From: Nitrospirota bacterium
GTDB lineage: Bacteria; Nitrospirota; Nitrospiria; 2-01-FULL-66-17
DNA length: 64,000 nt
Direction of reading: 5' to 3'
Assembly (NCBI GenBank): GCA_049325295.1
Contig: JBMOMD010000033.1
Span: 11,588 to 75,587 of the forward strand
The translations under genes and the position numbers were made by a program. This document shows positions 502 to 63,465 of this stretch, piece by piece (the stretch's first letter is position 1; each line of letters starts with the position of its first letter). The notes under the pieces were generated by a model. It ran no database searches. It was not told where the DNA came from and worked only from the letters and a program-made list of their open reading frames with translations.

Positions 502-1722
502 ATGCCTAAAGCGCTGGACGTTCAAGATCTCAGAAAGGTCTATCGGCTCTATCGTTCGCCGAAAGATCGCCTGCTGGAGCTTATCAGCCTGAAAGGTGGT
601 GGCCATCACAGGGAGTTTCCCGCCCTCGACGGGGCGTCATTCACTCTCGATCGAGGCGAAACCCTCGGAGTCATCGGACGAAATGGAAGCGGGAAGAGCA
701 CGTTGTTGAAGATTTTATGCGGCGTCACCCGCCCGACAAGTGGGACGGTTGAGGTGAGCGGACGGGTGGCTTCGTTGCTTGAATTGGGCGCCGGGTTTCA
801 CCCTGAATTCAGTGGGCGCGACAATGTGTATATGAATGGCTCGCTGATGGGGTTCAATAAGTCCGCGATGGACCGCCGACTCCCTGAAATCGAAGCGTTT
901 GCCGAGATCGGAGAGTTTATCGACCAACCGGTGAAGCGGTACTCCAGTGGCATGTTCGTTCGCCTGGCGTTCTCCGCCGCCATTAGCGTGGAGCCGGACA
1001 TTCTGATCATCGACGAGGCTTTGGGTGTTGGAGACCTCGGATTTCAGTTGAAATGCATTGAGAAACTCAAGGCGTTTCAACGGGAGGGACGCACGATCAT
1101 TTTGGTGACGCACCAGTTCCAAGCGTTGCGGAACTTCTGCACGCGCGTCCTTTGGTTGGATCAAGGAAAGATTCGGGGCGACGGTGATGTGATTACGGTG
1201 ACCGACGCATACCGAGATTTCATGAGTTGGGGCCAAGGTGCGGGGCAAGAAGCCGCGACGGAGGACGAGGACTCCGGAGGCTCCGTCTTGTCGATAAGTA
1301 GCGTGGATATCTTGGATAGGAACGTTCGCAAGGCAGAGGCGATCGAGTTCGGCGCTCCATTCTCGGTTGCGGTTTCCTATCGGCTGCATAAGCCATATGA
1401 GGGCCTCGTTGGGGGTGTGGCTATCGTGGGTAGAGAGGGAGTTACGGTCTGCGGCCTCACAACGAAGCGTGATGGTATTTCGCTCCCATCGGTGGCGGGG
1501 TCTTATACGCTGAACGTTTCCTTTCCTGAGCCCAAATTGCTTCCAGGAGCGTATCGAATCCGAGTCGTATTTCTCGAAAGTTCCGGGGTTGGTCGCATCG
1601 CCGTACAATACGATGCTGCTTCATTCACGGTGCGATCAACGGGGTACAAAGCGGAGGGTTTGTATTTACTTGCGCATCATTGGACCGTGAATGCTCTCTC
1701 CGACGCTGACGTGAAGAGGTGA
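502..1722 (+). CDS. ABC transporter ATP-binding protein, Wzt/TagH-like, with C-terminal ~150-aa extension (putative glycan-cap binding domain)
   Basis: Walker A 'GRNGSGKST', ABC signature 'YSSGMFVRLAFS', Walker B 'ILIIDEAL'; 406 aa versus ~250 for a bare NBD. Confidence 0.85.
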   Translation: MPKALDVQDLRKVYRLYRSPKDRLLELISLKGGGHHREFPALDGASFTLDRGETLGVIGRNGSGKSTLLKILCGVTRPTSGTVEVSGRVASLLELGAGFHPEFSGRDNVYMNGSLMGFNKSAMDRRLPEIEAFAEIGEFIDQPVKRYSSGMFVRLAFSAAISVEPDILIIDEALGVGDLGFQLKCIEKLKAFQREGRTIILVTHQFQALRNFCTRVLWLDQGKIRGDGDVITVTDAYRDFMSWGQGAGQEAATEDEDSGGSVLSISSVDILDRNVRKAEAIEFGAPFSVAVSYRLHKPYEGLVGGVAIVGREGVTVCGLTTKRDGISLPSVAGSYTLNVSFPEPKLLPGAYRIRVVFLESSGVGRIAVQYDAASFTVRSTGYKAEGLYLLAHHWTVNALSDADVKR

Positions 1723-42759: not shown

Positions 42760-45700
42760 TCAGCCGACGCCGCCCTGAGACATCAGGGACTCGACGGCGT
42801 CCGCCGGGAGCGGCCGGCTGTAGAAGTAGCCTTGAGCGAAGTCGCAGCCCAACGAACGCAAAAATTCGGCTTGGGTCGCCGTCTCCACGCCTTCCGCGAT
42901 CACCTGAAGCCGAAGGCTGTGGGCCAATGAGACGATCGCCGAGGCGATCGCCGAATGATCGGGGTCGGCCGGCAGGTTGGCGACAAAGGATCGATCAATC
43001 TTGAGCGTGTCGATCGGGAACCGCTTGAGATAACTCAGCGAGGAGTAGCCGGTTCCGAAATCATCGATTGAAAACCTGATGCCGAGTTCACGCAACTCGG
43101 TGAACCGGGCGAGCACGGTCGGCTCGTGCTCGAGTAACAGGCTCTCCGTGACCTCGATTTCCAGCCAGTGGGCCGGGATGTTGGCGTCGAGGAGCATCCT
43201 CGCGACGCTGGCGGGGAAATCCGGCTGTCGAAACTGCCGCGGCGACACGTTGACCGAGACGCGTGCAAGCGACAAACCGGCGTCCCGCCAGGTCTTGGTT
43301 TGCGTGAGCGCGGCGCGGAGGACCCACTGACCGATCGACGTGATCAACCCGGTTTCCTCAGCCACGGGGATGAACTCCACCGGTGGGACCATCCCCCGGT
43401 CCGGGCGCGACCAGCGAATGAGCGCCTCGACGCCGACGATTCGGCCCGTGGATAGATCGATCTGCGGCTGGTAGTGGAGGCGGAACTCGTCGCGCTCCTG
43501 CGCCCGGCGAAGGTTGGTCTCCAGGTCGAGGCGTTCGATGGCCTTGGCGTTCATGTCGGCCGTGTAGAACTGGTAGGTGTTTCGTCCGGTCTCCTTGGCG
43601 CGATACATCGCGGTGTCGGCGTTCTTCAGCAAATGTTCCACTCGGTCGTCGTCCGTCGGATACAGGGTGATGCCGATGCTCGCCGTCGCGTACAACTCAT
43701 GTCGTCCGAATCGGACGGGCTGCGAGAACTCGTCGAGGATTCGGCGCGCGACGTTGGCGGCGTCCTCGGCGTGAGCCATGTCGGCCAACACGATCGCGTA
43801 TTCATCGCCGCCCAACCTGGCCACCGAGTCTCCCTCCCTGACGCAGCGGTTCAGGCGCTCCGCCACGGTTTTGAGGACGTCGTCGCCCACTTCGTGGCCC
43901 AAGGTGTCGTTGATGGTCTTGAAGCGGTCGAGATCGAGGAACATCACGCCCACGACCCGCTGGTGGCGCGTCGCGTTGATCACGGCGTGGGTCAATCGGT
44001 CTTGGAGCAGCAGCCGATTCGGCAGGCCGGTGAGCGCGTCGTAATGCGCGAGATGATCGAGCCGCTCTTGAGCCCGTTTTCGTTCCGTGATATCGCGGAC
44101 GATGCCCACGAACCGCGGTCCGTCGTCGAGGCGCATCTCGCTGATCGCCAGGTCCATGGGAAACGTCGAGCCGTCTTTCCGCAGGCCGATGACCTCACGG
44201 GGGCCGACGCCGATAATTCGGCCTTGGCCCGTGGCGGCGTAACGCCGGATGTATTCGTCATGCGCGCTGCGGTCGGGCTCAATCATCAACATGGAGACGT
44301 TGCGGCCCACGACCTCCGACGCGGGGTACCCGAAGAGGCGCTCGGCGGCGGGGTTGAACGAATCGACGATTCCGCGTTCGTCGATCGTCACGATCCCGTC
44401 GGCGCTGCTGGTCACGATTGAGCGCAATCGGTATTCGCTCGTCCGCAGGCTCTCCTCGGCGCGCGTCCGCTCGATGGCGATGCCGGCCATTTGAGCCGCC
44501 GTGGCGAGCAATTTCAAGTCCGCTTCGGTGGGGGTGTAACGGGAGCCCGCGTACATGGCGAACGTGCCCAGTACGCGGCGGTCCGACGACAGGATCGGGT
44601 GCGACCAACACGCGCGCAACCCGTGAGAGAGCGCCAGATGGCGGAAATCTTCCCACAGCGGGTCGGTTTCGATATCGTCGACCGCCACGAGTTCTTTTCG
44701 ATACGCGGCGGTCCCGCACGAACCGACGCCGGGGCCGATCGCGATGCCGTCGATGGCCCGGTTGTAGGCGGCGGGGAGGCTCGGCCCCGCCCCCAAGCGC
44801 AACCGAGTACCGGTCGGGTCCACGACAAGCGCCGAGCAGGGGCCCGCGGTGTATTGGTGTTCAATCGCCTGCACCAGGGCCAGGAGGACGTTCGGGAGCG
44901 CGGCCCCGGTCGCCAGCAGCTCAAGCGTGCGGTTGTAGCCCGCCATGGTCCGCTCGTGTTGCTTGCGCTCGGCTTGCGCGCGCGCGTTAGCCATCACGAG
45001 GGCCAGCGATTCCGCAAAACTCGTGGCCAACAGTTCATCGTGGTCGCTGAATGGTTGGTCGGTCGTTTTGTCGCACAAGTACACTCGACCGAACACTTGT
45101 CCGCGATAGGAAATCGGCACCGCGAGCAGCGACCGCATCACCGGGTGGTTCGGAGGAAAGCCCGCCGCGCGGGGATCACGCGTGAGGTCATCGATCCGGA
45201 GAGGACGGTTCTCGCGGAGCACGGCGCCCAAGAGCCCGCGGCCCTGGGGGAGTTGGCCGATGCGGTCCGCGTCCTCGGGGCTGAGTCCCGTGTAAAAGAA
45301 GCGGGCGAGGCCGCTCGTGTCATCAAAAATGCCCACCGCGCCGTACCGTGCTTGGACGAGCGCGGTCAGGGCGTCGATGCCGCGTTGCAAAAGGTCGCCT
45401 TCCAACGACTGCATCGCGAGGAGCCCCAACAAGTTGGTCGATGCCGCGTGCAGTTCTTCCAGTCGCGCCGACCAGGCGAGCAACCGTTTTCGGTCGTCTT
45501 CGGCCTGGTGGCGCAGGCGCTGCGACTCATCCCGCAGGATCCGCTCGTGGTTGAGGAGCGAAGCGAACAGACTGGTTCGGGTGACCGCGCCCGCAAACCG
45601 TCCGTCCGTACCGAGCACCGCCACGGCTTCCCCGCCGTCCATTTTGGCGAGCACGTCTTCCAGCGAGGTGTCGAGAGCGATGGGCTGCGGCGAGTGCGGA

Positions 45701-45915
45701 GGAATCAGGTCGGCGAAGATGCGGTGTGGAAAGCGGGCAACGTCGTCGGACGCGACCAGGCCCAGAAACGACCCGTCATCACCGCGCGCGTCGGTCTCCG
45801 CGAACACGGCGTACAGGAGGGAGACCCCTTGCTCCCGGCAGTCCGCCGGGCGCATTTCGCCGCTCACGCGCAGCACCGGCTGATGGAGCGCGTCGGCGGC
45901 GATCAACACCTTCAC
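42760..45915 (-). CDS. Multidomain c-di-GMP turnover protein: CBS pair - GAF - GAF - PAS - GGDEF - EAL
   Basis: 'RLGGDEYAIVL' (GGDEF), 'EALIRW' and 'DDFGTGYSSLSYL' (EAL), PAS 'LRSIVTSSADGIVTID', N-terminal CBS pair. Confidence 0.85.
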   Translation of the reverse strand: MKVLIAADALHQPVLRVSGEMRPADCREQGVSLLYAVFAETDARGDDGSFLGLVASDDVARFPHRIFADLIPPHSPQPIALDTSLEDVLAKMDGGEAVAVLGTDGRFAGAVTRTSLFASLLNHERILRDESQRLRHQAEDDRKRLLAWSARLEELHAASTNLLGLLAMQSLEGDLLQRGIDALTALVQARYGAVGIFDDTSGLARFFYTGLSPEDADRIGQLPQGRGLLGAVLRENRPLRIDDLTRDPRAAGFPPNHPVMRSLLAVPISYRGQVFGRVYLCDKTTDQPFSDHDELLATSFAESLALVMANARAQAERKQHERTMAGYNRTLELLATGAALPNVLLALVQAIEHQYTAGPCSALVVDPTGTRLRLGAGPSLPAAYNRAIDGIAIGPGVGSCGTAAYRKELVAVDDIETDPLWEDFRHLALSHGLRACWSHPILSSDRRVLGTFAMYAGSRYTPTEADLKLLATAAQMAGIAIERTRAEESLRTSEYRLRSIVTSSADGIVTIDERGIVDSFNPAAERLFGYPASEVVGRNVSMLMIEPDRSAHDEYIRRYAATGQGRIIGVGPREVIGLRKDGSTFPMDLAISEMRLDDGPRFVGIVRDITERKRAQERLDHLAHYDALTGLPNRLLLQDRLTHAVINATRHQRVVGVMFLDLDRFKTINDTLGHEVGDDVLKTVAERLNRCVREGDSVARLGGDEYAIVLADMAHAEDAANVARRILDEFSQPVRFGRHELYATASIGITLYPTDDDRVEHLLKNADTAMYRAKETGRNTYQFYTADMNAKAIERLDLETNLRRAQERDEFRLHYQPQIDLSTGRIVGVEALIRWSRPDRGMVPPVEFIPVAEETGLITSIGQWVLRAALTQTKTWRDAGLSLARVSVNVSPRQFRQPDFPASVARMLLDANIPAHWLEIEVTESLLLEHEPTVLARFTELRELGIRFSIDDFGTGYSSLSYLKRFPIDTLKIDRSFVANLPADPDHSAIASAIVSLAHSLRLQVIAEGVETATQAEFLRSLGCDFAQGYFYSRPLPADAVESLMSQGGVG

Positions 45916-48994: not shown

Positions 48995-49216
48995 ACCTCA
49001 CCTCGTGTCGCGGCATTGTAGCGTGACGCCCCGCCAATCCGCTACCCCTCGATGGGAGTAGCTTGCTAGCGCAACCGACTGAGGCGCATCATGACGCTGG
49101 AGGGATGGGCGTCGCCCATTTTCTCCGCTGCGCGTACCCGTTCGATGGATGGGATTATTACGGGCGGCTTGACACAATACCGCCCGCCGAGTGAGGAGAC
49201 CGAGGAGCATGGTGCC

Positions 49217-49675
49217 ATGACCGCGCCGTCGTTCAGCCTACTGGTGGTACCGACCGACTTTTCCGCGGGTTCGTCCGCGGCCGCGGAGTACGCGTTGTGG
49301 TTGGCGGGCAAAACCGGCGCACGGATCCTGTACCTTCACGTGATGGAGCCGACCGCGTATTCAGTGGATTTTGCGTTAACCCGGCCGGACCTGTCCGCCG
49401 AAGTCCGGGAGCGCGCGGGTGAAGCGTTGCGTCAGCTGGTGGAGGAGGCGCGCTCGCGCGGGGTGTCCGCGGAACAGGCATTGGCGGTCGGCTCGCCGTT
49501 CGCCGAGATTCAACAGACCGCGGTGGACCGCAAGGCCGACTTGATCGTGATGGGCACGCACGGACGCACCGGGTTGGCGCATGTGATGTTGGGCAGCACC
49601 GCGGAGCGCGTGGTGCGCCTCGCGACCTGTCCGGTGCTGACGGTGAAGGCGTCGCCCCCGGTCGACGGGACGTAG
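49217..49675 (+). CDS. Universal stress protein (UspA family)
   Basis: 'LLVVPTDFSAGSSAAAEYA', 'ADLIVMGTHGRTGLAHVMLGSTAERVVRLATCPVLTV'. Confidence 0.8.
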   Translation: MTAPSFSLLVVPTDFSAGSSAAAEYALWLAGKTGARILYLHVMEPTAYSVDFALTRPDLSAEVRERAGEALRQLVEEARSRGVSAEQALAVGSPFAEIQQTAVDRKADLIVMGTHGRTGLAHVMLGSTAERVVRLATCPVLTVKASPPVDGT

Positions 49676-53106: not shown

Positions 53107-54111
53107 TCAATGCGACCGCGACAAGCGGTCGGCGTCCAGCCGTAATTCGTTCGCGATCTCGTCCGCCGCGCGCGTCAACGTCGACTCCGTGTCGGTCGCG
53201 TCGGTCAGGCCTTGAATGCGCTTTCGGAATTGGTCCAGGCGTCGCTCGTGGTCGGCCGCCCGCTCCGGACTGATACGCTTCGCGACGGCGTCGCGGAGCC
53301 CGGACTCTCCGTAGAGGCGCGACTGCGCGGCGGTCGCTCGGATGGTCGCGGCCGTGATCGCGCCGTTTTTCCACAGCGCCACGGCTTTGAGTAATTGCTC
53401 GCGGATTTGGTCGACAACGGCCCCCCAGTCCTGATCGATCGTGTCGGTCAGATCAACGCCGGGGGCGGCCGACGCGCGCAATTGCAGCGCGACCGTCACC
53501 GGAGCCGCGGCCACCGTCACCGTCGCGCGGGCCTGCGCCTGCTCATCGGGCGAGACCCGCGAATGCCAAGCTTCCACGTGGTACGCGCCCTCGGGAACGC
53601 CGGTGATCCGAAACGCGCCCCGCTCGTCAGTGACGGCAAAATACGGGGAGGGTGCCACGTACACGAGCCCGCGCATGGTTTCGTGGGTGCGGCAGCGCAG
53701 GGGCACCGCGCCCGGGTTCTTCACGGTGACACGGGTGATCGTATCCGGCATGTGGGCGCCGGTGTCGAAGCGGTTGGTCTTGGATCGGGAGTGGATGTTG
53801 TGAATCTCCTGGTCCAGATTTTCGAAGGCGATCGTCGTCCCCACCGGGACCACGACAAAGTCCGGGTCAAATCGCAGGTCCTTCTGGCGGATGCGTTGCT
53901 CCACGGGTGCCGCTGCGAGCGGCTGTCCGTCGGCGCGCTGGAGGTAGACCACGGCTCGCGACGCGGTATCCCCATTGATCGTGACGCGGCCGGTGACCAC
54001 GCCCTCTCCGGCGGCGAGCGCGCTGCCGGAGAGGCCCATGAGCGCGAGGCCCAACAACGCAAGGATGCGGGTGGCGAGAGGAAAGCGGGGAAGGCTCCGC
54101 GTCGTGTTCAT
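53107..54111 (-). CDS. Secreted cupredoxin-like protein (same subfamily as 28109..28738) with C-terminal helical extension
   Basis: 334-aa C-terminal part of track ORF 53107..55218; signal peptide; 'FDPDFVVVPVGTTIAFENLDQEIHNIHS', 'LRCRTHETMRGLVYV' (C-x2-H-x2-M), 'GAFRITGVPEGAYHVEAWH'. Confidence 0.6.
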   Translation of the reverse strand: MNTTRSLPRFPLATRILALLGLALMGLSGSALAAGEGVVTGRVTINGDTASRAVVYLQRADGQPLAAAPVEQRIRQKDLRFDPDFVVVPVGTTIAFENLDQEIHNIHSRSKTNRFDTGAHMPDTITRVTVKNPGAVPLRCRTHETMRGLVYVAPSPYFAVTDERGAFRITGVPEGAYHVEAWHSRVSPDEQAQARATVTVAAAPVTVALQLRASAAPGVDLTDTIDQDWGAVVDQIREQLLKAVALWKNGAITAATIRATAAQSRLYGESGLRDAVAKRISPERAADHERRLDQFRKRIQGLTDATDTESTLTRAADEIANELRLDADRLSRSH

Positions 54112-54192
54112 AAACACGGATCTTACCACGGGCCGATCGCGCTGCGATCGATAACGGCTCGGTTGAAATTTCACCGCGACCGGGGTAGTTTT

Positions 54193-55161
54193 ATGGAAGA
54201 GGTTAAACCCGGGAGCTGGCCGATGACGCGTCTCGTGCATTCCTCGCTGGTTCTCGTGGTCCTGTTCTGGACCACGTCCGTTGCCTGGTCGTATCAGATT
54301 TCGGAACCGACGAACGGCGGCAGAATCACCGGAATCGTGACGCTGCGAGGCCAAATTCCGCAGCCGCGCGCGTTTCCCATGGTGCTGTATCCGCACGGGG
54401 AGTTCTGCAAAAAGCTCTCCGATGGGAACGGCCACGTCCTGCTCAAGGAGTTCAACGTCGACTCGTCCGGGGCGCTCCAAGACGTGGTGGTGGCGGTGCA
54501 GAACGTGTCTCACGGCAAGGCGTTTCGTTCCCGGGATACGGATCTCGAAACCGTGAACTGCATGTTCCACCCCGCGGACGTGCCGGAGAGCGAACAGTTC
54601 GCCCATCGCGAGGGACACCTGGTCCACATCCATCCGCTCGTGACCGTGATGCGCGACCCGAGCCTGCTGACCGTGGCCAACCGCGACCCGATCGTGCACG
54701 CGGCGCAGGTGTATCAGGCGGAGAAGGGCAATCGGGTCCTGAGTTTTCCGATTCCGGTGTCCTACAGACCGAACAGCGGGTACGTGGACCTGGAAAAAGG
54801 TAAACGGATCGTGCAGATCATTTGCGGCATGCACGAGTACATGCAGACGTGGGCGTGGGTGGTGGACAACCCGTACTTTGCCAAGACCCACGCGGGCGGC
54901 GGGTTCGCGATCGACAAGCTGCCGCCGGGAACCTACCGCGTGCTGGCGTGGCATCCGCACATGAAGCCGATCGTCAAAGAGGTCGTGGTTCCGGCCGACG
55001 GTGCGGTGACGCTGGACTTTGAGTTCGACGCGAGCCAGGTGGTCCGGCCGATCTATGAGACGCAGGAACAGTTCCGCATCCCGCCGACCCGCGATCCCGC
55101 GGTCGACCTGAGCGGGTGCGAAGGGCCGTATTGCGTGAAACGGGAACACGACCACCACTGA
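54193..55161 (+). CDS. Secreted CarboxypepD_reg-like + cupredoxin-like protein (paralog of 62500..63465)
   Basis: Signal peptide; 'NRDPIVHAAQVY' and 'ICGMHEYMQTWAWVV' (C-x2-H-x2-M); C-terminal 'CEGPYC'. Confidence 0.6.
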   Translation: MEEVKPGSWPMTRLVHSSLVLVVLFWTTSVAWSYQISEPTNGGRITGIVTLRGQIPQPRAFPMVLYPHGEFCKKLSDGNGHVLLKEFNVDSSGALQDVVVAVQNVSHGKAFRSRDTDLETVNCMFHPADVPESEQFAHREGHLVHIHPLVTVMRDPSLLTVANRDPIVHAAQVYQAEKGNRVLSFPIPVSYRPNSGYVDLEKGKRIVQIICGMHEYMQTWAWVVDNPYFAKTHAGGGFAIDKLPPGTYRVLAWHPHMKPIVKEVVVPADGAVTLDFEFDASQVVRPIYETQEQFRIPPTRDPAVDLSGCEGPYCVKREHDHH

Positions 55162-55327
55162 TCCCCGGTTCCCGGCACGGCCGCGCGCAGCGCGGTCGTG
55201 CCGTTTCTTCCAGCGCACGCCTCATCCGAACGGGGGATGAACTTCCCCCGACAAATCCGTCTCCGTACTTACCTCGAAGCATGGATCACCCATGACTCGC
55301 GCAGTAATCTCGTTCACAGGAGGAAAC

Positions 55328-56299
55328 ATGCGACGTATCGGTGTGTTGACCAGCGGGGGCGACGCCCCCGGCATGAACGCGGCGATCCGGGCGGTGACCC
55401 GGACCGGGATCGCGGCCGGGCTTGAAGTCGTGGGCATCCGTCGCGGGTTCGCGGGACTGATCGCGGGCGATCAGATCGTGCTGACCTCGCGATCGGTGAG
55501 CGGGATCATCGACCGGGGCGGCACGATGCTGGGCAGCGCGCGCTGTCCGGAATTCACGACCGAGGACGGCCAGCGTCGGGCGTTGGACGCGATCCGGGCC
55601 GCGGCCCTGGACGCGCTGATCGTGATCGGCGGGAACGGATCCCAGGCCGGCGCGTTCACCCTCGACAAACTGGGGGTGCCGGTGGTGGGCGTGGCCTCCA
55701 CCATCGACAACGACCTCGAGGGCAGCGACATCACCATCGGCGTGGACACCGCGCTCAACGTCGCGTTGGGAGCGATCGATCGGATCAAAACCACCGCGGC
55801 ATCGCACCGGCGGGCGTTCCTGGTGGAAGTGATGGGACGCGACTGCGGGTATCTGGCGCTGATGACCGGGATCGCGGGCGGGGCCGAGGTGGTGGCGATT
55901 CCCGAGCAGGCGTGCGACCCCGAAGCCATGGCCGCGCAATTCCGCGCGGCGTACGACGGGGGCAAGGCGCACGCGATCGGGGTGATCGCCGAAGGCGCCA
56001 AGTTTCGCGCCGCGGACATCGTGGAGTATTTTCGCGCACACCATGAACGCATCGGTTTTGACCTGCGCGTGACGTGTTTGGGCCACATCCAGCGCGGGGG
56101 CGCGCCCGGGGCGTTCGATCGGTTGCTCGCCACCCGTCTCGGAGCCGGCGCGGTCGACGCGCTGTCGCGGGGAGCGCATGGGGTGTTGGTGGGACTGGTC
56201 CGCGGCGACGTGGCCGCCACGCCGCTATCGGAGGTGGTCGCGTCCTGTAAGCCGCTCGACATGCGGCTGTGGGAGCTGGCCAAGGTCCTGGCGAGGTGA
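55328..56299 (+). CDS. pfkA: ATP-dependent 6-phosphofructokinase
   Basis: 'RIGVLTSGGDAPGMNAAIRAV', 'GGNGS', 'STIDNDL', 'MGRDCG'. Confidence 0.85.
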   Translation: MRRIGVLTSGGDAPGMNAAIRAVTRTGIAAGLEVVGIRRGFAGLIAGDQIVLTSRSVSGIIDRGGTMLGSARCPEFTTEDGQRRALDAIRAAALDALIVIGGNGSQAGAFTLDKLGVPVVGVASTIDNDLEGSDITIGVDTALNVALGAIDRIKTTAASHRRAFLVEVMGRDCGYLALMTGIAGGAEVVAIPEQACDPEAMAAQFRAAYDGGKAHAIGVIAEGAKFRAADIVEYFRAHHERIGFDLRVTCLGHIQRGGAPGAFDRLLATRLGAGAVDALSRGAHGVLVGLVRGDVAATPLSEVVASCKPLDMRLWELAKVLAR

Positions 56300-56330: not shown

Positions 56331-56537
56331 ATGAATCATAACGTCGGCAACATCGATCGGGTGGTGCGCGGGGCGGTGGGGATCGTATTGGCGGTGGGCG
56401 CGCTCAGCGCCGGGGCGCCGGTTGTCCGCGGGGTCCTGGGCGTGGCCGCGCTGATCATGGTGGGCACCGCCCTCCTGGGATTCTGCCCCCTGTACCGCGT
56501 GTTCGGATTAAACACCTGTCGGCGGGGAACCCGATAG
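56331..56537 (+). CDS. DUF2892 (YgaP-like) small membrane protein
   Basis: 'DRVVRGAVGIVLAVGAL..GFCPLYRVFGLNTC' typical DUF2892. Confidence 0.7.
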   Translation: MNHNVGNIDRVVRGAVGIVLAVGALSAGAPVVRGVLGVAALIMVGTALLGFCPLYRVFGLNTCRRGTR

Positions 56538-56947
56538 TGGAACCTTCCGCGGTGGTGACGTGGCAAGGCGGTGTTCGGTTCGCCGCGGACGTCCGCGGCC
56601 ACCGGATGGTCATTGATCAGCCCAAGGACGAGGGCGGGAGCGACGAAGGCATGACCCCATTGGAGTGTCTGGCCGTGTCATTGGGGAGTTGCGTGGCGTA
56701 CTTTGCGGCCCGGTTCGCGCAGCGGCACGGGGCGGCGCTCGAGGCGCTGCGCGTGGACGTGGCGTGGGACTACGCGGAGCGGCCGCATCGGGTCGGGCGC
56801 TTTGACGTGCGATTGACCTATCGCGGCGCGATCGACCGCACCATGTGCGAGCGCCTGCTGGCCGTGGCGCGGGGATGCACCGTGCACCATACCCTGACGC
56901 ACCCGCCGGAGATCAGCGTGACACTCCATGAAGATTCAAACGCGTAA
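56537..56947 (+). CDS. OsmC/Ohr family peroxiredoxin-like protein
   Basis: 'PLECLAVSLGSCVAYFAA' and C-terminal 'GCTVHHTL' OsmC-type Cys pair. Confidence 0.7.
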   Translation: MEPSAVVTWQGGVRFAADVRGHRMVIDQPKDEGGSDEGMTPLECLAVSLGSCVAYFAARFAQRHGAALEALRVDVAWDYAERPHRVGRFDVRLTYRGAIDRTMCERLLAVARGCTVHHTLTHPPEISVTLHEDSNA

Positions 56948-57130: not shown

Positions 57131-57538
57131 ATGGTCGGGAAAACTTTCGTGACGGCGAAACGGAGGGTTTTGGTGGTGGGCAGCGCATCGCTGTTCGGGT
57201 CGGCGATGGAGGGGCTGTTGGGCGCGGAGTGCGGCGATCGCGTGGACGTGGAGTCGGTCGCGACAGTGGACGCGGCGATCGAAGCCGCACCGAAGTTCCG
57301 ACCGGACGTGATCGTGTTCTGTTTGGAGCGCGACGATGCCCGCGATCAGAGTGCACTCCATCGACTGAGCCTGCTGGACGCGTATCCGGCCCGGATCGTT
57401 CGCTGCACCCTGGAGCACAACCACCTGACCGTGTATGACACGAGACGGATCACCGATGCCACGCCGGAGGACCTCATCGAGGCGGTGTGTCAGGTCGGTG
57501 AGAATCCGCTCGACTACGAGAAAGGGGGAGGCGAATGA
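57131..57538 (+). CDS. Hypothetical pseudo-receiver-like protein; stop codon overlaps start of the giant oxidase (ATGA)
   Basis: Flavodoxin/REC-like alternation ('RVLVVGSASLFGSAMEGLL', 'PDVIVFCLERDD') without an obvious phospho-Asp; stop overlaps downstream ATG. Confidence 0.4.
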   Translation: MVGKTFVTAKRRVLVVGSASLFGSAMEGLLGAECGDRVDVESVATVDAAIEAAPKFRPDVIVFCLERDDARDQSALHRLSLLDAYPARIVRCTLEHNHLTVYDTRRITDATPEDLIEAVCQVGENPLDYEKGGGE

Positions 57539-60500
57539 CGAGGACGAAGTGGATGCGGGTGGCAGTGGGGGGGCTGGCACTGGGTGCGTGGCTATCCGGC
57601 GGCCCACCTGCGGTGCGCGCCGCGGATGAACACGGCGCGCACGAGGCGGGATCTGGAACGACCGTGGTCGCGGCCGCTCAGGAACCGGCGTCGTGGGAAC
57701 AGAAATTCAAGGAGCAGTTGGAACGGGAGGATGTGGCGGAAGGCCGCATGGGTCACCGGGAACAGGTGCAGGCCGCAATGAACAAGCTGATGGAGGAAAT
57801 CGCGCGTGGCACCAACGCGCACGGCGCCCATACCGCGGCGCAAGGTCCGTACAGCGACGCGGCCATGGCTCAGCAGATGGACGGCAGCTATTTTCTGGGC
57901 GTGGCCTCCACGGCCGAGAGCGTGACCCAGGGCGGCCGCTGTCCCGCGAACGTGCCGACCAAAACCTACGACGTATCGGCCATCAACGTGGAGATCACGC
58001 TGAACCAATGGTTGGACTATCACCCCGGCTACATGTACGCGCTCACCGAGGATCTCCCCAGGGTCCGGGAGGAAGAGAAGGTTAACCGGGAAGCGCGCAA
58101 ATCAACGGGATACAACCCCGGTGCCGTGACCCTCGGCATGCAGACCGACGCGATTCAGCCGATCGTGCTCCGAGGGAATCAGGGCGATTGCGTGGTCATT
58201 ACCCTGCGGAATCAGCTCGACGGCGAGGACGTGGGGATTCACGTCCACGGCTCCAGTATGATCATCAAGTCTACCGGAGCCGCGGCCACCGCGGCGAACG
58301 CCGACTCCACGGTCAAACCGGGCAAGAGCCAGACGTTCGAATGGTATATCCTGCCGTCAGAGCAGGAAGGCTCGCACATGCTCCACAGCCACGTGGGTCG
58401 CGAGCAGGCGAGCTTGGGCATGATCGGCGCGTTCATCGTCGAGCCGATGGGGTCCCGGTACCTGGATCCGATCTCCGGGAAAGAGGTCAAGAACGGGTGG
58501 CAAATGATGATCGACGACCCGAAGGGGCCGGACTTCCGGGAGTATGCGATCTTCTACCACGAGATCGGCGACGAGTCGTTCCGGCCGTTGAACAAACAGG
58601 GCGATACGGTTCCGCAACGCGACCCGAACACGGACGCGTACCGACCGTCGGCGCGGGCGCTGAACTATCGCAGCGAGCCGTTCGGCATCAACAATCTGGC
58701 GCTCCAAGAGAAGTATTTCCACTTTGAAGATGAGTCCATGTCCTACAGTTCGTACACCTTCGGCGACGTGCCGACGCCGATTCCGAGGGGCTATATGGGC
58801 GATCCGAACAAGTGGCGCTTGATTCACGGCGGAGGCGAGGTGTTTCACTCGCACCACCCCCACGGGGGATCGATCCGCTGGCTGCGTCAGCCCAAGGCCG
58901 ACGGCAAGGGGCAGTTCCTGTTGACCGCGGCCGGCAACGGACCGGTGAAGTATCCTGAAGTCAGGACCACGTCGGATCGGGTGGACGTAGAAGTGATCGG
59001 ACCATCCGAAGTGCTCGATCTTCAGACCGAATGCGGTTGGGGATTGTGTCAGCAGGTGGCGTCCGAGTATCTGTTCCACTGCCACGTCGCGCACCACTAC
59101 GTCGCGGGCATGTGGTCCTACGGCCGAGGGTACAACACGCTGCAGACCGGCAACTACCCGTTAGGCAGCACCGACCCGATGCCGCCGTTACAGGAACTTC
59201 CGGACCGCAAGGGGCGGATGAAGGCCGCGGTGACGTCGGATCAGTTGGTGGGCAAGACCATGGACTGGTACGACAAGAAGTGGAACATCACCGCGAACAA
59301 GACGGACTTCTCCAAGCCCATTCCGGACGTGTCGATCAAGGATTGGGTCAAGATGATGCTCCCGCCGGCCGGACAGCCGGGCCATACCGCGGATGAGAAA
59401 GGCCAGATCATGGCCTACGACGCGACCGTGTTCGACTGGATCTGGGACGGGAACAAGGCCATGGGCGAGGCCGAGGCGACTCAGAAGTTCGACAACCCGA
59501 AGTACAAGTCGCCGATACCCGGGAAACGGCCGCCGATCCTGTTTGACGCCAAGACCGGCAAGCTGGCCCATCCGTTTATGAAGCCGCATTTCGGCAAACG
59601 GAATCCCTTCGGCAGGCATCATGGACCGGCGCCGTGGTTGGAACCGATCCATATGGACAAGAGCACCGGGTCGTTGGCCACCGAGCCCGGCGGTCTGGGC
59701 GTTGCCGGAGGCGAGACGAATCAGCCAGCGCGTCCGGGCGAGCAGGGCAAGTGGAGTCTTTGCCCTGAAAAAGCCGGTCGCAAGCAATACACGATCCACT
59801 TTATCGAAACCCCGATTACCATGAATCAGGCCATCGGGAAACAGAAGCCGGTGGTGGATCAGCACGGGACCATCTATGTGCTGCATGAGGAGGAGGCCGC
59901 GGTCCGTGCCAACTCCGACTTGGCCCGTCCGCTGGTCTATCGATCCAACGTGTACGACTGCGTGGACGTCATCTTGAAGAGCGAGTGGGAGGACAACGAC
60001 ACCACGAACTTCCAGATGTCCAAGATCAACATCCATCCGCACTTCATGCAGTTCGACAACAACGCGAGCGACGGCGTGATCACCGGATTTGCCTATGAGA
60101 TGTCGGTCCGGCCGTTCACGCAGTTCAAGAAGGACAAGCACAAGGGGTTGCCGGTGCCGATGAACGCCCGCCTGACGGAGGACGTCAAGGCTGGCGCCAC
60201 GTCGATCAAGATCCAGATGCCGGAAGGCGCGACGAAATACCACGTCGGCACCGACATCATGATCGGGATGGACGAGGTCAACACCTCGGAGGTTCGCTGG
60301 ATCACGGACATCAAGGGCGACACGCTGGTGTTCGGCGAGCCGCTCAAACACGCCCACAAGAAGGGCGAGATCGCGTCGGTGGAATTCATCCGGTATCGCT
60401 ACTGGGTGGACGTGGATCTCGGCACCGTGTTCTGGCACGACCACGCGCTCGGCGGCACCACGTGGCCGCACGGCGCGGTGGGCGGCAACATCGTCGAGCC

Positions 60501-62439
60501 ATACGGTTCGACGTATCATGACCCTGTGACCGGAAAAGAGATCCGGAGCGGGCCGATCGCGGATATTCATACGACGGAGCCGGTGGGCTATGGCGTGAAC
60601 GGCAGTTTCCGTGAAATGGTGCAATACCTGCACGATACCGTGCCGTACACCGCGCAGGTCGTCACCGCGGGCAATCCGCCGGGACAGACGGTGCAGGCGG
60701 CGATCGACGCGGGGCAGGCGTTGTTCTTCCAGATGCCGTACGACCTGGATCTGGTGTCGGTGCCCATGATCAACGGCGGGACCCACACCACCGGAGGCGG
60801 GTTTTTCTTCAAGGCGGAATCCATCGCCAAACGCCTCAAGAACAATCCGGACCCGTCGCAGGTTTTCTCCACCAAAGTCCACGGGATCGATCCGGGAACG
60901 CCGATGTTGCGCGCCTACGTGGGCGACCCGGTGGTGTTTCGCGTGCTGCACGTGATGATGAACGAATCGCACACGTGGCATATGGCCGGGCACGCGTTCC
61001 GCACCGAACGGTACGCGGAGCATTCGGATTTCCGAAACGCGTACCACGTGGGCATCGCGGAACGGTACGACCTGGTGACCAAGGCCGGCGGACCGCAGCG
61101 GATGGCCGGGGACTACCTGCACTACGACGGGCGTCCCTCCCATTTGTCGGAAGGAAGCTGGGGGATCTTCCGGGTCTTGGATAAAGAAGTGCCTGATCTC
61201 AAGAAGCTGCCGGGTTACGAGGAGATTCCGGCGTCCGCGAAGGCGGTGTGTCCGTCGGATGCGCCGGTCAAGACCTTCAACGTGATCGCGGCGGATCGGG
61301 CGTTGAAGTACAACGTCAACGCGCCGGACGCGATCGAGGTGGATTTCGACCGCACGATCCAAGTGGCGAACCCGCAGGGCAAGATCTACATACTCGAAGG
61401 GGAAAAGTCGAAAGTGGCGGAAGGCGGAGCGCAGCCCATGCCGCTGACCCTGCACGTGAACGTGGGGGACTGCATCAAGGTCAACTTGAAGAATGAAATG
61501 AAGGCGAGCCGCGCGTCGTTCAGCGCGGACATGCTGGCGTTCGATCCCAAGGATTCGCAAGGGGTCAACGTGGGCAACAACCCCGGCGACCAGACGGTGG
61601 GGCCGGGCCAGAGCCGGACCTACACCTACTACGCGCCTCCGCAGTACGGGGAGACCGCGGCGCTGGTGTGGGACTGGGGGAACTTCGTCAACAACGTCCG
61701 GGACGGGTTGTTCGGGGCGATCATCGTCGGGCCGAAGGGATCGAAGTACCGGGATCCCAAGACCGGCGAGGACGTCGGCCTGAAGAACGCGTGGCAGGTG
61801 GACGTGGTCGTGGACCGGACGATTCCGGAGAATGCGACCAAGTCCGATTACCGCGATGCCTCGTTGTTCTTCCAGGACGAGGACAATATCATCGGGACCG
61901 CGTTCATGCCCTATATCCAACAGATCGGCGGATTGACGGGCGTGAATTACCGGACCGAGCCGTGGTTGTATCGTGAGGAGAAGGGCTGCGACATGGGCAG
62001 TATGTTCACGCCCTGCGTGGCCGGGGAATCCGATCCGGTCACCCCGACCATCATGTCCCATGCGGGCGATCCGGTGAAGATCCACGTGTTCGGCGCGTTC
62101 AACGAGCAGAACCAGGTCTTCAGCTTGGAGGGTCATGAATGGCCGCTCAAAGTCAACATGGAAGGCGCTGATATGCTCAGTTCGGAAGAGTTCGGCTCCT
62201 CCGAGAACTTGAATGTCTTCTTGAGAACAGCGGGTGGGCCGTTCAATCTTCCGGGGGACTACCTCTGGCAGAACCATCGGATGCCGTATGCCCAAGCTGG
62301 GCAGTGGGGGTATCTGCGGGTGCTGCCGGCCGGGGATCGACGGATCCTTCCGCTGAACAGCGGAGGGCCTGGCGGTCGGACCGCGGAGTTGCCGCGGGAA
62401 GACGGGCTGGCTGTCTCGATGTTGCAGCCGGAGAAGTAA
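57535..62439 (+). CDS. Giant secreted multicopper oxidase (1634 aa, MofA/MnxG-like, >=6 cupredoxin domains in three tandem pseudo-repeats)
   Basis: Signal peptide; MCO copper motifs 'IHVHG', 'MLHSH', 'HSHHPHG', perfect type-1/trinuclear signature 'HCHVAHHYVAGM' (H515-C516-H517..H521..M526); second unit 'IHPHF', 'WHDHALGGTTWPHG', 'HTWHMAGHAF'; third unit degenerate. Confidence 0.8.
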   Translation: MTRTKWMRVAVGGLALGAWLSGGPPAVRAADEHGAHEAGSGTTVVAAAQEPASWEQKFKEQLEREDVAEGRMGHREQVQAAMNKLMEEIARGTNAHGAHTAAQGPYSDAAMAQQMDGSYFLGVASTAESVTQGGRCPANVPTKTYDVSAINVEITLNQWLDYHPGYMYALTEDLPRVREEEKVNREARKSTGYNPGAVTLGMQTDAIQPIVLRGNQGDCVVITLRNQLDGEDVGIHVHGSSMIIKSTGAAATAANADSTVKPGKSQTFEWYILPSEQEGSHMLHSHVGREQASLGMIGAFIVEPMGSRYLDPISGKEVKNGWQMMIDDPKGPDFREYAIFYHEIGDESFRPLNKQGDTVPQRDPNTDAYRPSARALNYRSEPFGINNLALQEKYFHFEDESMSYSSYTFGDVPTPIPRGYMGDPNKWRLIHGGGEVFHSHHPHGGSIRWLRQPKADGKGQFLLTAAGNGPVKYPEVRTTSDRVDVEVIGPSEVLDLQTECGWGLCQQVASEYLFHCHVAHHYVAGMWSYGRGYNTLQTGNYPLGSTDPMPPLQELPDRKGRMKAAVTSDQLVGKTMDWYDKKWNITANKTDFSKPIPDVSIKDWVKMMLPPAGQPGHTADEKGQIMAYDATVFDWIWDGNKAMGEAEATQKFDNPKYKSPIPGKRPPILFDAKTGKLAHPFMKPHFGKRNPFGRHHGPAPWLEPIHMDKSTGSLATEPGGLGVAGGETNQPARPGEQGKWSLCPEKAGRKQYTIHFIETPITMNQAIGKQKPVVDQHGTIYVLHEEEAAVRANSDLARPLVYRSNVYDCVDVILKSEWEDNDTTNFQMSKINIHPHFMQFDNNASDGVITGFAYEMSVRPFTQFKKDKHKGLPVPMNARLTEDVKAGATSIKIQMPEGATKYHVGTDIMIGMDEVNTSEVRWITDIKGDTLVFGEPLKHAHKKGEIASVEFIRYRYWVDVDLGTVFWHDHALGGTTWPHGAVGGNIVEPYGSTYHDPVTGKEIRSGPIADIHTTEPVGYGVNGSFREMVQYLHDTVPYTAQVVTAGNPPGQTVQAAIDAGQALFFQMPYDLDLVSVPMINGGTHTTGGGFFFKAESIAKRLKNNPDPSQVFSTKVHGIDPGTPMLRAYVGDPVVFRVLHVMMNESHTWHMAGHAFRTERYAEHSDFRNAYHVGIAERYDLVTKAGGPQRMAGDYLHYDGRPSHLSEGSWGIFRVLDKEVPDLKKLPGYEEIPASAKAVCPSDAPVKTFNVIAADRALKYNVNAPDAIEVDFDRTIQVANPQGKIYILEGEKSKVAEGGAQPMPLTLHVNVGDCIKVNLKNEMKASRASFSADMLAFDPKDSQGVNVGNNPGDQTVGPGQSRTYTYYAPPQYGETAALVWDWGNFVNNVRDGLFGAIIVGPKGSKYRDPKTGEDVGLKNAWQVDVVVDRTIPENATKSDYRDASLFFQDEDNIIGTAFMPYIQQIGGLTGVNYRTEPWLYREEKGCDMGSMFTPCVAGESDPVTPTIMSHAGDPVKIHVFGAFNEQNQVFSLEGHEWPLKVNMEGADMLSSEEFGSSENLNVFLRTAGGPFNLPGDYLWQNHRMPYAQAGQWGYLRVLPAGDRRILPLNSGGPGGRTAELPREDGLAVSMLQPEK

Positions 62440-62499: not shown

Positions 62500-63465
62500 A
62501 TGTCGAGCAAGGGGAACGCAATGCGGCGTGTCACTGGTGTACGAGGTGTCTTAACAGGATTGGTCGTGGCGGCAGTGGCCGGGGGCTCGCTGGCCTGGGC
62601 CGTTCCTGATTATGAGGAGACGACGGTGAGCAACGCCGGCAGCATTACCGGCACCGTGAGCTTAACCGGGCCGATTCCCGAACCCAGGGTGTTCCCCTTG
62701 GTCCTGTATCCATTCGGTCCATTCTGCAAAAAGATTTCGGACGGCCGCGGCCATATTCAGGTGGACGAGTTCCTCGTGTCATCGGACCGTGGACTGCAAG
62801 ATACGATCGTCGCGGTCCAGCAGGTCAGGAAGGGCAAGCCGTTTCCGCCCCTCAAACAGGAGCTGGTGGCGGTAGACTGCATGTTCCATCCCGCGGAGAC
62901 CGCGGAGGACGAACTGTTTGCGATCGACGCCAAGGGCAAGTTGCACCACGAGCACCCCTTGGTCATGGTGCTGAGAAATCACCAGCCGATCTGGGTGGTC
63001 AACCGCGACCCGATCATCCACAACGGGCAGGTCTTTCAGAACGAAAAGGGCAATATCATTCTCAACTTCCCATTGCCGGTGGCCGAGGAACCGCGCGGCG
63101 GCATGCTGGATTTCGATCCGGGAAAACGCGTCTCCCAGATGATTTGCGGCATGCACGAATTTATGCAGGCGTGGGGATTCGTCGTGGACAATCCGTACTA
63201 CGCGCGAACCAAGAAAGACGGGAAATTCACGATCGACGGACTGCCGCCCGGCACCTATCGCGTGGCCGCGTGGCATCCGCACTTGCCGATCATCGAGCGG
63301 GAAGTAACGGTGCCGGCCGACGGCACGGCGTCATTCGATGTGGTATTCGACGGGTCGCGGGTCGTGCGTCCTGCGTACGAAAGCCAGGAGAAGTTTCGGA
63401 TCGGGCCGGAGGCGCGTCCCCATGAACACCTGGAAGAATGCGTGCCTCCCTATTGCGAGGAGTAG
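62500..63465 (+). CDS. Secreted CarboxypepD_reg-like + cupredoxin-like protein
   Basis: Signal peptide; 'NRDPIIHNGQVF', 'ICGMHEFMQAWGFVV' (C-x2-H-x2-M), 'GTYRVAAWHPH', C-terminal 'CVPPYCEE'; ~55% identical to 54193..55161. Confidence 0.6.
   Translation: MSSKGNAMRRVTGVRGVLTGLVVAAVAGGSLAWAVPDYEETTVSNAGSITGTVSLTGPIPEPRVFPLVLYPFGPFCKKISDGRGHIQVDEFLVSSDRGLQDTIVAVQQVRKGKPFPPLKQELVAVDCMFHPAETAEDELFAIDAKGKLHHEHPLVMVLRNHQPIWVVNRDPIIHNGQVFQNEKGNIILNFPLPVAEEPRGGMLDFDPGKRVSQMICGMHEFMQAWGFVVDNPYYARTKKDGKFTIDGLPPGTYRVAAWHPHLPIIEREVTVPADGTASFDVVFDGSRVVRPAYESQEKFRIGPEARPHEHLEECVPPYCEE

Follow-up and report, generated by a model that had tools for sequence, protein, structure and literature searches.

The 64,000-nucleotide window analysed here, which stems from a Nitrospirota bacterium (contig JBMOMD010000033.1), encodes a 1634-residue multicopper oxidase (MCO) with copper-ligand motifs spread unevenly over three tandem units, and the locus raises the question of where in such a protein the catalytic copper centre would be located. 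A preliminary description had read the protein as an ancient triplication in which the first unit (A) is catalytic on its own, while the second and third (B and C) turned into substrate-binding or scaffold domains. Our analysis supports the triplication of a two-cupredoxin unit and a single catalytic centre, but not a self-contained unit A. Instead, the protein is very probably a six-domain oxidase of the MnxG type, with the type 1 (T1) copper in domain 2 (D2) and one trinuclear cluster predicted at the D2/D3 interface.

Internal triplication and fold class

All eleven motifs quoted in the preliminary description were found at the claimed residue and nucleotide positions of the open reading frame (ORF) 57535..62439. 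These include IHVHG (aa 235-239, nt 58237), HCHVAHHYVAGM (aa 515-526, nt 59077, with C516 at nt 59080), IHPHF (aa 833-837), WHDH (aa 967-970), HTWHMAGH (aa 1146-1153) and GQWGYLRVL (aa 1589-1597). A whole-protein self-BLAST returned the identity match alone, and the repeat is visible only when segments are compared with one another. In blastp, A (141-560) matched C (1244-1624) with E=9e-17 and 23% identity over 441 columns, B (980-1215) matched C (1391-1597) with E=4e-16, and A (279-531) matched B (963-1213) with E=5e-10; the N-terminal halves of the units are similar as well (E ~3e-4). Comparison by hhalign of per-unit sub-alignments, drawn from 114 full-length homologs, gave E=2e-39 for A-C, 8.5e-31 for B-C and 8e-29 for A-B. 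The self-alignment suggested earlier as a check thus shows three mutually similar units, and the internal repeat is real and well past chance.

The extent of the units differs from the ~450-550 aa assigned to them before, as the homologous cores comprise only ~360-410 aa. Unit starts are fixed by an invariant Cys pair which recurs once per unit (C136/C219, C743/C809 and C1239/C1313, in the context "...CP..." followed by "GDC/YDC"). The corrected cores span residues 136-545 (A), 743-1230 (B, including an insertion of ~90 aa) and 1239-1600 (C). A non-repeated linker of ~200 aa (546-742) separates A from B; neither this linker nor the N-terminal 135 residues showed internal similarity in the segment blastp.

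Consistent with this, the best match in a sequence search of the PDB was MnxG of Bacillus sp. PL-12 (9bxa_A, 1227 aa; E=9.7e-101). D1-D2, D3, D4-D5 and D6 are all collinear with this chain: query residues 149-559 align to 9-378 (D1-D2), 754-860 to 449-555 and 951-1009 to 558-616 (both D3), 1089-1338 to 663-914, and 1326-1412 to 926-1009. The oxidase was modelled by AlphaFold as two overlapping pieces, aa 141-1230 (predicted local distance difference test, pLDDT, 76; predicted template modelling score, pTM, 0.77) and aa 746-1634 (pLDDT 81; pTM 0.84). For both models 9bxa_A ranked first in Foldseek (E 4e-56 and 5e-62; TMq 0.57 and 0.66), followed by ceruloplasmin and factors V/VIII and then by two-domain laccases, which cover one unit each (TMt 0.6-0.7). 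The matches to MnxG, ceruloplasmin and laccases identify the protein as a six-cupredoxin-domain MCO of the MnxG type. As in the MnxG/ceruloplasmin class, its six cupredoxin domains are arranged as three tandem two-domain units (hhalign, AlphaFold, Foldseek) and the T1 site falls in an even domain. Within this class, however, the query is a homolog and not an equivalog of the NCBIfam family NF041487, "manganese-oxidizing multicopper oxidase MnxG", since it reached only 82.7 bits in 7 stretches against a cut-off of 3100 bits. The only Pfam matches on the oxidase, Cu-oxidase_3 and Cu-oxidase_2, lie in D1.

The features of the oxidase gene are as follows; the signal peptide was read from the translation, and export of the protein is predicted accordingly from it.

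57535..62439, + strand: complete ORF (1634 aa and stop codon) encoding the six-domain multicopper oxidase
57535..57621, + strand: predicted Sec-type signal peptide, aa 1-29 (...AVRA|ADEH)
57622..57939, + strand: N-terminal extension, aa 30-135, poorly conserved (mean identity 0.17-0.35), with two HGAH motifs (EHGAHE, NAHGAH)
57940..58563, + strand: cupredoxin domain 1 (D1), aa 136-343, with HxH pairs H236/H238 and H284/H286 at canonical trinuclear-ligand positions, variable in the family
58564..59169, + strand: connector and cupredoxin domain 2 (D2), aa 344-545, with T1 ligands H438, C516, H521 and M526
59170..59760, + strand: non-repeated D2-D3 linker, aa 546-742, with invariant H685, H696 and H706
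59761..60654, + strand: cupredoxin domain 3 (D3), aa 743-1040, with invariant HxH pairs H834/H836 and H968/H970
60115..60384, + strand: beta-rich insertion of ~90 aa within D3, aa 861-950, between the two HxH motifs, with invariant H903 and H941
60655..61224, + strand: connector and cupredoxin domain 4 (D4), aa 1041-1230, with degenerate T1 and trinuclear positions
61249..61884, + strand: cupredoxin domain 5 (D5), aa 1239-1450, without His at the HxH positions (FSAD, WDW)
61885..62334, + strand: connector and cupredoxin domain 6 (D6), aa 1451-1600, keeping H1581 alone, the equivalent of H517

Due to the insertion, the two HxH motifs of D3 are 132 residues apart, compared with 46 in D1.

The closest homologs are proteins from Nitrospirota metagenome-assembled genomes (up to 88% identity), followed by those of Ca. 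Manganitrophus sp. SA1 (78%) and Nitrospina gracilis (59%). The clade is known from the literature, where a periplasmic MCO of Nitrospina and Nitrospira was noted to resemble the Bacillus Mn oxidase and to have a possible role in defence against reactive oxygen species (ROS) (Lücker et al., 2013; PMC3578206). Moreover, only one Nitrospinae oxidoreductase was more abundant than the Nitrospinae "MnxG" in metaproteomes from the central Pacific (Saunders et al., 2022; PMC9477243), and "two novel MCOs" were reported for the core genome of the Manganitrophaceae (Yu et al., 2022; PMC9040806), one of which is probably the protein described here. In the published work that we found, the domain and ligand architecture of the Nitrospina-type orthologs was not dissected, and domain-level information is likewise absent from Romano (2017).

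Copper ligands and the catalytic centre

To locate the active site, the twelve canonical ligand positions were placed on every domain. D1 and D4, which could be aligned directly to ascorbate oxidase (1aoz), served as anchors, and the other domains were related to these two through hhalign. In D1, the motifs coincide in the alignment with the His pairs of the trinuclear site in domain 1 of ascorbate oxidase, while D4 aligns to the stretch 439-460 of the 1aoz chain, with H1146, H1149 and A1151 at chain residues 445, 448 and 450, which we take to be known copper-ligand positions. The resulting assignment is given below, with the two HxH motifs for odd domains and the HxxHxH and HCHxxxH...M motifs for even domains.

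D1, HxH and HxH: H236, H238 and H284, H286
D2, HxxHxH and HCHxxxH...M: H438, H441, H443 and H515, C516, H517, H521, M526
D3, HxH and HxH: H834, H836 and H968, H970
D4, HxxHxH and HCHxxxH...M: H1146, H1149, A1151 and Y1197, D1198, G1199, H1203, S1208
D5, HxH and HxH: FSAD and WDW, His absent
D6, HxxHxH and HCHxxxH...M: N1526, F1529, L1531 and Q1579, N1580, H1581, Y1585, Q1590

The trinuclear half-site of D2 is formed by H441, H443, H515 and H517. The position of the T1 Cys is occupied by D1198 in D4 and by N1580 in D6, neither of which is a Cys. As described before, ligands drop from unit to unit: unit A retains 12/12, unit B four in D3 plus three relics in D4 (H1146, H1149, H1203), and unit C a single one. 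The residue of 9bxa_A that matches H521 of the query is Ala, i.e., the engineered H340A of this entry, which places the T1 site in D2. With 8/8 ligands in D2, 4/4 in D3 and a T1 site nowhere but in D2, the pattern matches the bacterial MnxG-type layout (Vasin et al., 2013).

Conservation distinguishes sharply between the two sets of odd-domain histidines. In the close family (115 sequences, 57-88% identity) the D2 ligands are invariant in 115/115 homologs, except for H521 (114/115, with Asp in one), and so are the four D3 histidines (115/115). The four D1 histidines, in contrast, are found in 74, 65, 76 and 81 of the 115, with Q, N, Q and Y in their place elsewhere. Among 1.84 billion cluster representatives searched, 1695 relatives were detected, from which a divergent set of 45 long representatives, clustered at <=50% identity and alignable through D1-D6, was taken. 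Bacillus-type MnxG and some very long relatives were left out of this set, as hmmalign with its single local path put them on the wrong repeat unit. The T1 H/C/H and the eight His of D2 and D3 (four each) are complete in 45/45 of these representatives, with the axial Met changed to Phe in two, whereas the full D1 quartet is present in only 14. Bacillus MnxG itself carries MHFQE and FFTDLG at the D1 positions and FHIHF and FHDHL at those of D3. The invariance of the D3 histidines, together with the variability of those in D1 and their absence from Bacillus MnxG, argues that unit B supplies half of the active site. The earlier view of B and C as scaffold or substrate-binding copies, with decaying His pairs in unit B, finds no support in this pattern.

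In SLAC trimers and in ceruloplasmin, the cluster is located between an even domain, which bears T1 and the HCH motif, and the following odd domain with its two HxH motifs, not inside a unit. The same even-to-next-odd arrangement was described for two-domain and six-domain MCOs in general; in all bacterial six-domain MCOs analysed by Vasin et al. (2013), MnxG included, T1 resides in D2 only and the trinuclear site bridges D2 and D3, while leftover ligands occur at D1/D6 and D4/D5 (PMC3600357). Following this rule, the one complete interface of the present protein is D2/D3, across the A/B boundary.

We therefore picture a secreted oxidase built from three tandem units resembling two-domain laccases (D1-D2, D3-D4 and D5-D6), which by homology to MnxG and ceruloplasmin would close into a pseudo-threefold ring. 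Of its three equivalent even/odd interfaces, only one would still represent a complete catalytic centre. Substrate electrons would enter at the T1 copper of D2 (H438, C516, H521, M526) and travel via the H515-C516-H517 bridge to the trinuclear cluster, where O2 would be reduced to water. The cluster would be held by H441, H443, H515 and H517 of D2 and by H834, H836, H968 and H970 of D3. The degenerate D4, D5 and D6 would serve as scaffold, and in the clade of the query the D6/D1 interface would retain a five-His relic (H236, H238, H284, H286, H1581).

The arrangement proposed before, a cluster between D1 and D2 in a self-contained unit A, with B and C as ligand-depleted substrate-binding or scaffold copies in a new layout, has its appeal in the query itself, where unit A holds all 12 canonical ligands and the D1 motifs match the trinuclear His pairs of ascorbate oxidase domain 1. 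Nevertheless, we consider it very improbable. The D1 His are replaced in ~40% of the close orthologs, many of them from the group with 57-60% identity to which the Nitrospina gracilis protein belongs (a group-level placement), and the full quartet is absent from 31 of the 45 divergent representatives. In addition, Bacillus MnxG, for which manganese-oxidase activity is given in the literature (PMC3578206, PMC9477243), lacks the D1 His, the invariant D3 His would be unexplained by a scaffold role, and known MCO clusters form from an even to the next odd domain and not inside one unit (PMC3600357). Nor is the layout distinct from that of MnxG, as had been assumed, given the sequence homology, the top Foldseek match and the published layout.

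Several points nonetheless weigh against a D2/D3 centre as the full account. The AlphaFold check that had been proposed gave beta-rich models of D1-D4 and D3-D6 with six-domain MCOs as top matches, but the ligand loops are modelled at low confidence. In the D1-D4 model, pLDDT is <50 at aa 444-446, 516-524, 826-854 and 970-977, i.e., in most D2/D3 ligand loops, and in the D3-D6 model at aa 829-833, 838-857 and 971-978; consequently, the models back the fold and not the site geometry. The full ring is known from two overlapping pieces rather than from one single model, and we infer the copper geometry and the His-His distances at D2/D3 from sequence instead of reading them from coordinates. Furthermore, the function of the Nitrospinae MnxG ortholog was called unconfirmed (PMC9477243). 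Finally, D1 has not merely decayed, because its quartet is kept within the clade of the query and co-varies with H1581.

Histidines outside the predicted D2/D3 centre

In the close family, the D1 quartet and H1581 occur together in 44 sequences and are both missing in 70, whereas the quartet alone is found in none and H1581 alone in one. The corresponding counts for the divergent representatives are 13, 28, 1 and 3, so that H1581 accompanies the quartet in 13/14 but is present in just 3/31 without it (Fisher p=1e-7, uncorrected for phylogeny). H1149 of D4 follows the same clade. In homologs with 57-60% identity to the query, substitutions in the D1 quartet and at H1581 are common (QNQH / LNA). 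This five-His cluster may be a remnant in slow decay or an additional metal site particular to the lineage.

An enzyme with two sites, in which H236, H238, H284, H286 and H1581 hold a second functional centre (one to two Cu, or a Mn substrate or product site) beside the D2/D3 cluster, is an unlikely but not far-fetched alternative. D6/D1 is the position of the trinuclear cluster of ceruloplasmin, the five residues co-vary as described, and a relative with a nearly complete second centre exists. With His at just 5/8 trinuclear positions and no T1 Cys in D6 (Q1579-N1580-H1581), D6/D1 is excluded as a canonical site of oxygen reduction. Shared ancestry and few losses may also account for the co-variation, and residues of this kind were already termed evolutionary residue by Vasin et al. 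(PMC3600357). We give a somewhat smaller chance to the more specific proposal that the five His form such a functional metal site, coexisting with the D2/D3 cluster, in the Manganitrophus-like clade, where it might cooperate with the invariant His of the linker and the D3 insertion. If true, a six-domain oxidase would harbour two metal centres at two ring interfaces, the second acting, e.g., as Mn-binding or nucleation site or as electron exit to the cupredoxin-like partner protein described below. We know of no six-domain MCO for which two metal centres at two ring interfaces have been described.

The relative in question is P0159, a metagenomic protein of 1580 aa, in which a complete D2/D3 set is accompanied by a T1-like HFLHCHHM in D6 and by HHYH in D1. 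Its motifs make it a candidate for a six-domain oxidase in which two centres are almost complete, standing between the MnxG-type and the ceruloplasmin-type layouts.

Apart from the copper motifs, invariant non-canonical His are found in the linker (H685, H696, H706; window 59587-59652) and in the D3 insertion (H903, H941; 60241-60357), and further ones at H342, H431, H979, H995, H1084, H1153 and H1534. They may provide extra metal-binding or structural sites particular to this family of large MCOs. The highest conservation of the whole protein (0.80-0.86 identity) is seen in the D1-D2 connector (window 58615-58785, aa 361-417), a region of low model confidence (pLDDT 42-66). It contains the motif NYRSEPF, which has counterparts at aa ~1090-1100 and ~1470-1480 (FFKAESI, NYRTEPW) as well as in MnxG (NLRYEPM, NFKCEPL). 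H1146, D1198 and H1203 of D4 were considered as a conserved 2-His-1-carboxylate metal site, which was ruled out by their variation among close homologs (D/N, H/K, H/M).

Partner gene, function and known systems

Directly downstream of the oxidase, a second gene is found whose adjacency is conserved.

62500..63465, + strand: downstream partner gene, 321 aa, secreted, with C-terminal CarboxypepD_reg

A secreted protein of ~270-320 aa that ends in a CarboxypepD_reg domain is encoded at the same position in Ca. Manganitrophus SA1 and Nitrospina gracilis (partner loci: window 62500-63465, + strand; L001 12985-13914; L002 13091-13903), and in N. gracilis c-type cytochromes come after it. Oxidase and partner are thus a two-gene module kept across phyla. 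The N-terminal half of the partner contains ICGMHEFM, a C-x2-H-x2-M loop that recalls T1 copper sites of the amicyanin type, although no cupredoxin profile matched the protein in Pfam, NCBIfam and PDB sequence searches. Upstream of the oxidase, the window encodes a paralog with 54% identity (54202-55161, +) and, divergent to it, a more distant relative (53107-54150, -) with CarboxypepD_reg followed by a helical tail. Residues 84-165 of the latter match Pfam Copper-bind (plastocyanin/azurin) with 21.0 bits, just under the cut-off of 21.2, and its loop RCRTHETM lines up with the ICGMHEFM of the partner. Given this alignment with a near-threshold plastocyanin relative, a putative role as cupredoxin-like electron partner is plausible.

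The start codon of the oxidase forms an ATGA overlap with a 135-aa ORF (57131-57538, +), which suggests translational coupling. This ORF has no Pfam match and only a very weak best match to CheY (E 0.84). It is not conserved, its place in Ca. Manganitrophus SA1 being taken by a DUF2214/CopD-like gene, and may not be a real gene. Neither this ORF nor the partner matched the solved MnxE/MnxF chains, a comparison confined to these two flanking genes, with other ORFs unscreened and MnxE/F not used as queries. Further neighbours are a large GAF-PAS-GGDEF-EAL protein of cyclic di-GMP signalling, a universal stress protein, a phosphofructokinase and an OsmC-like protein, listed with the following coordinates.

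42760-45915, - strand
49091-49675, + strand
55292-56299, + strand
56537-56947, + strand

A cytochrome bd-like oxidase or NXR genes were not seen in the examined part of the window.

Regarding function, homology alone points to Mn(II) as the most likely substrate, a tentative assignment to which we give slightly less than an even chance. Rather than being a terminal Mn(II):O2 oxidase, the enzyme could exchange electrons with the adjacent cupredoxin-like/CarboxypepD_reg protein as part of a chain serving respiration or ROS defence, which has been proposed for Nitrospina. In favour of such an exchange, the partner adjoins the oxidase in all three genomes, with cytochromes next in line in N. gracilis, its loop aligns with that of the near-threshold plastocyanin relative, and both ROS defence (PMC3578206) and a requirement for an electron carrier in the periplasm (PMC9040806) have been put forward in the literature. 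The complete and invariant set of T1 ligands and eight His, however, points to ordinary O2 reduction, and the partner is only putatively a cupredoxin, so that we regard this option as improbable.

The protein is of relevance beyond the window, as orthologs rank second among the Nitrospinae oxidoreductases in central Pacific metaproteomes, and one ortholog is probably encoded in the core genome of the manganese chemolithoautotrophs, the only ones known. The proposed active-site map (T1 in D2, cluster across A/B, D4-D6 as scaffold and a five-His relic at D6/D1) can guide the choice of residues for mutagenesis and the copper content to be expected. The discovery itself is modest, since the triplicated architecture and the D2/D3 cluster are already published for bacterial six-domain oxidases. 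What remains of interest are the linker and D3-insertion modules with their invariant His, the co-varying five His at D6/D1 and the conserved partner gene.

Among known systems, the MnxG-like oxidases of Nitrospina gracilis, Nitrospira and Ca. Manganitrophaceae are the nearest, being full-length homologs of ~1630 aa with 57-88% identity and, most likely, orthologs; we observed no family-level difference to the query. MnxG of Bacillus sp. PL-12, as part of the Mnx complex (9bxa), likewise comprises six cupredoxin domains in three two-domain units, with the T1 ligands in D2 (HxxHxH, HCHxxxH...M), HxH pairs in D3 and degenerate D4-D6. The query is ~400 aa longer, at a Foldseek sequence identity of ~20-22%. 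It features a ~135-aa N-terminal extension, while D1 of MnxG starts at residue ~9; its D2-D3 linker has ~200 aa compared with ~70 aa, the first part being modelled as a small alpha/beta subdomain (pLDDT 84-93), and its D3 insertion ~90 aa compared with 2 residues. Linker and insertion are present in most representatives down to ~37% identity, including proteins of Planctomycetota and Nitriliruptorales; by these alignments, both are family-wide and not special to the source genome. Further differences to MnxG concern the four His of D1, where MnxG has MHFQE and FFTDLG, and the genomic context, in which a ~320-aa CarboxypepD_reg protein is the conserved neighbour of the query and the two flanking genes compared gave no match to MnxE/MnxF, the accessory proteins of the Bacillus complex MnxE3F3G.

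The six-domain fold of three two-domain units is also common to ceruloplasmin, hephaestin and factors V/VIII (Foldseek E 1e-25 to 1e-29; TMq ~0.5 for D3-D6). Ceruloplasmin likewise has a single trinuclear site at an even-to-odd interface. In contrast to the preliminary description, in which the ligands of ceruloplasmin were spread over the interfaces of domains 1-2, 3-4 and 5-6, its T1 sites reside in D2, D4 and D6 and its only cluster at D6/D1. With T1 in D2 only and the cluster predicted at D2/D3, the query would correspond to this ring rotated by one unit. Two-domain laccases (SLAC, Ssl1 and the blue copper oxidase of Nitrosomonas), on which each unit of the query superposes (TMt 0.6-0.7), have their T1 copper in the second domain, too, and bind the trinuclear cluster where D2 of one unit meets D1 of the next. 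They are, however, homotrimers of separate chains with three clusters, whereas the query consists of three fused and diverged units which would share one.

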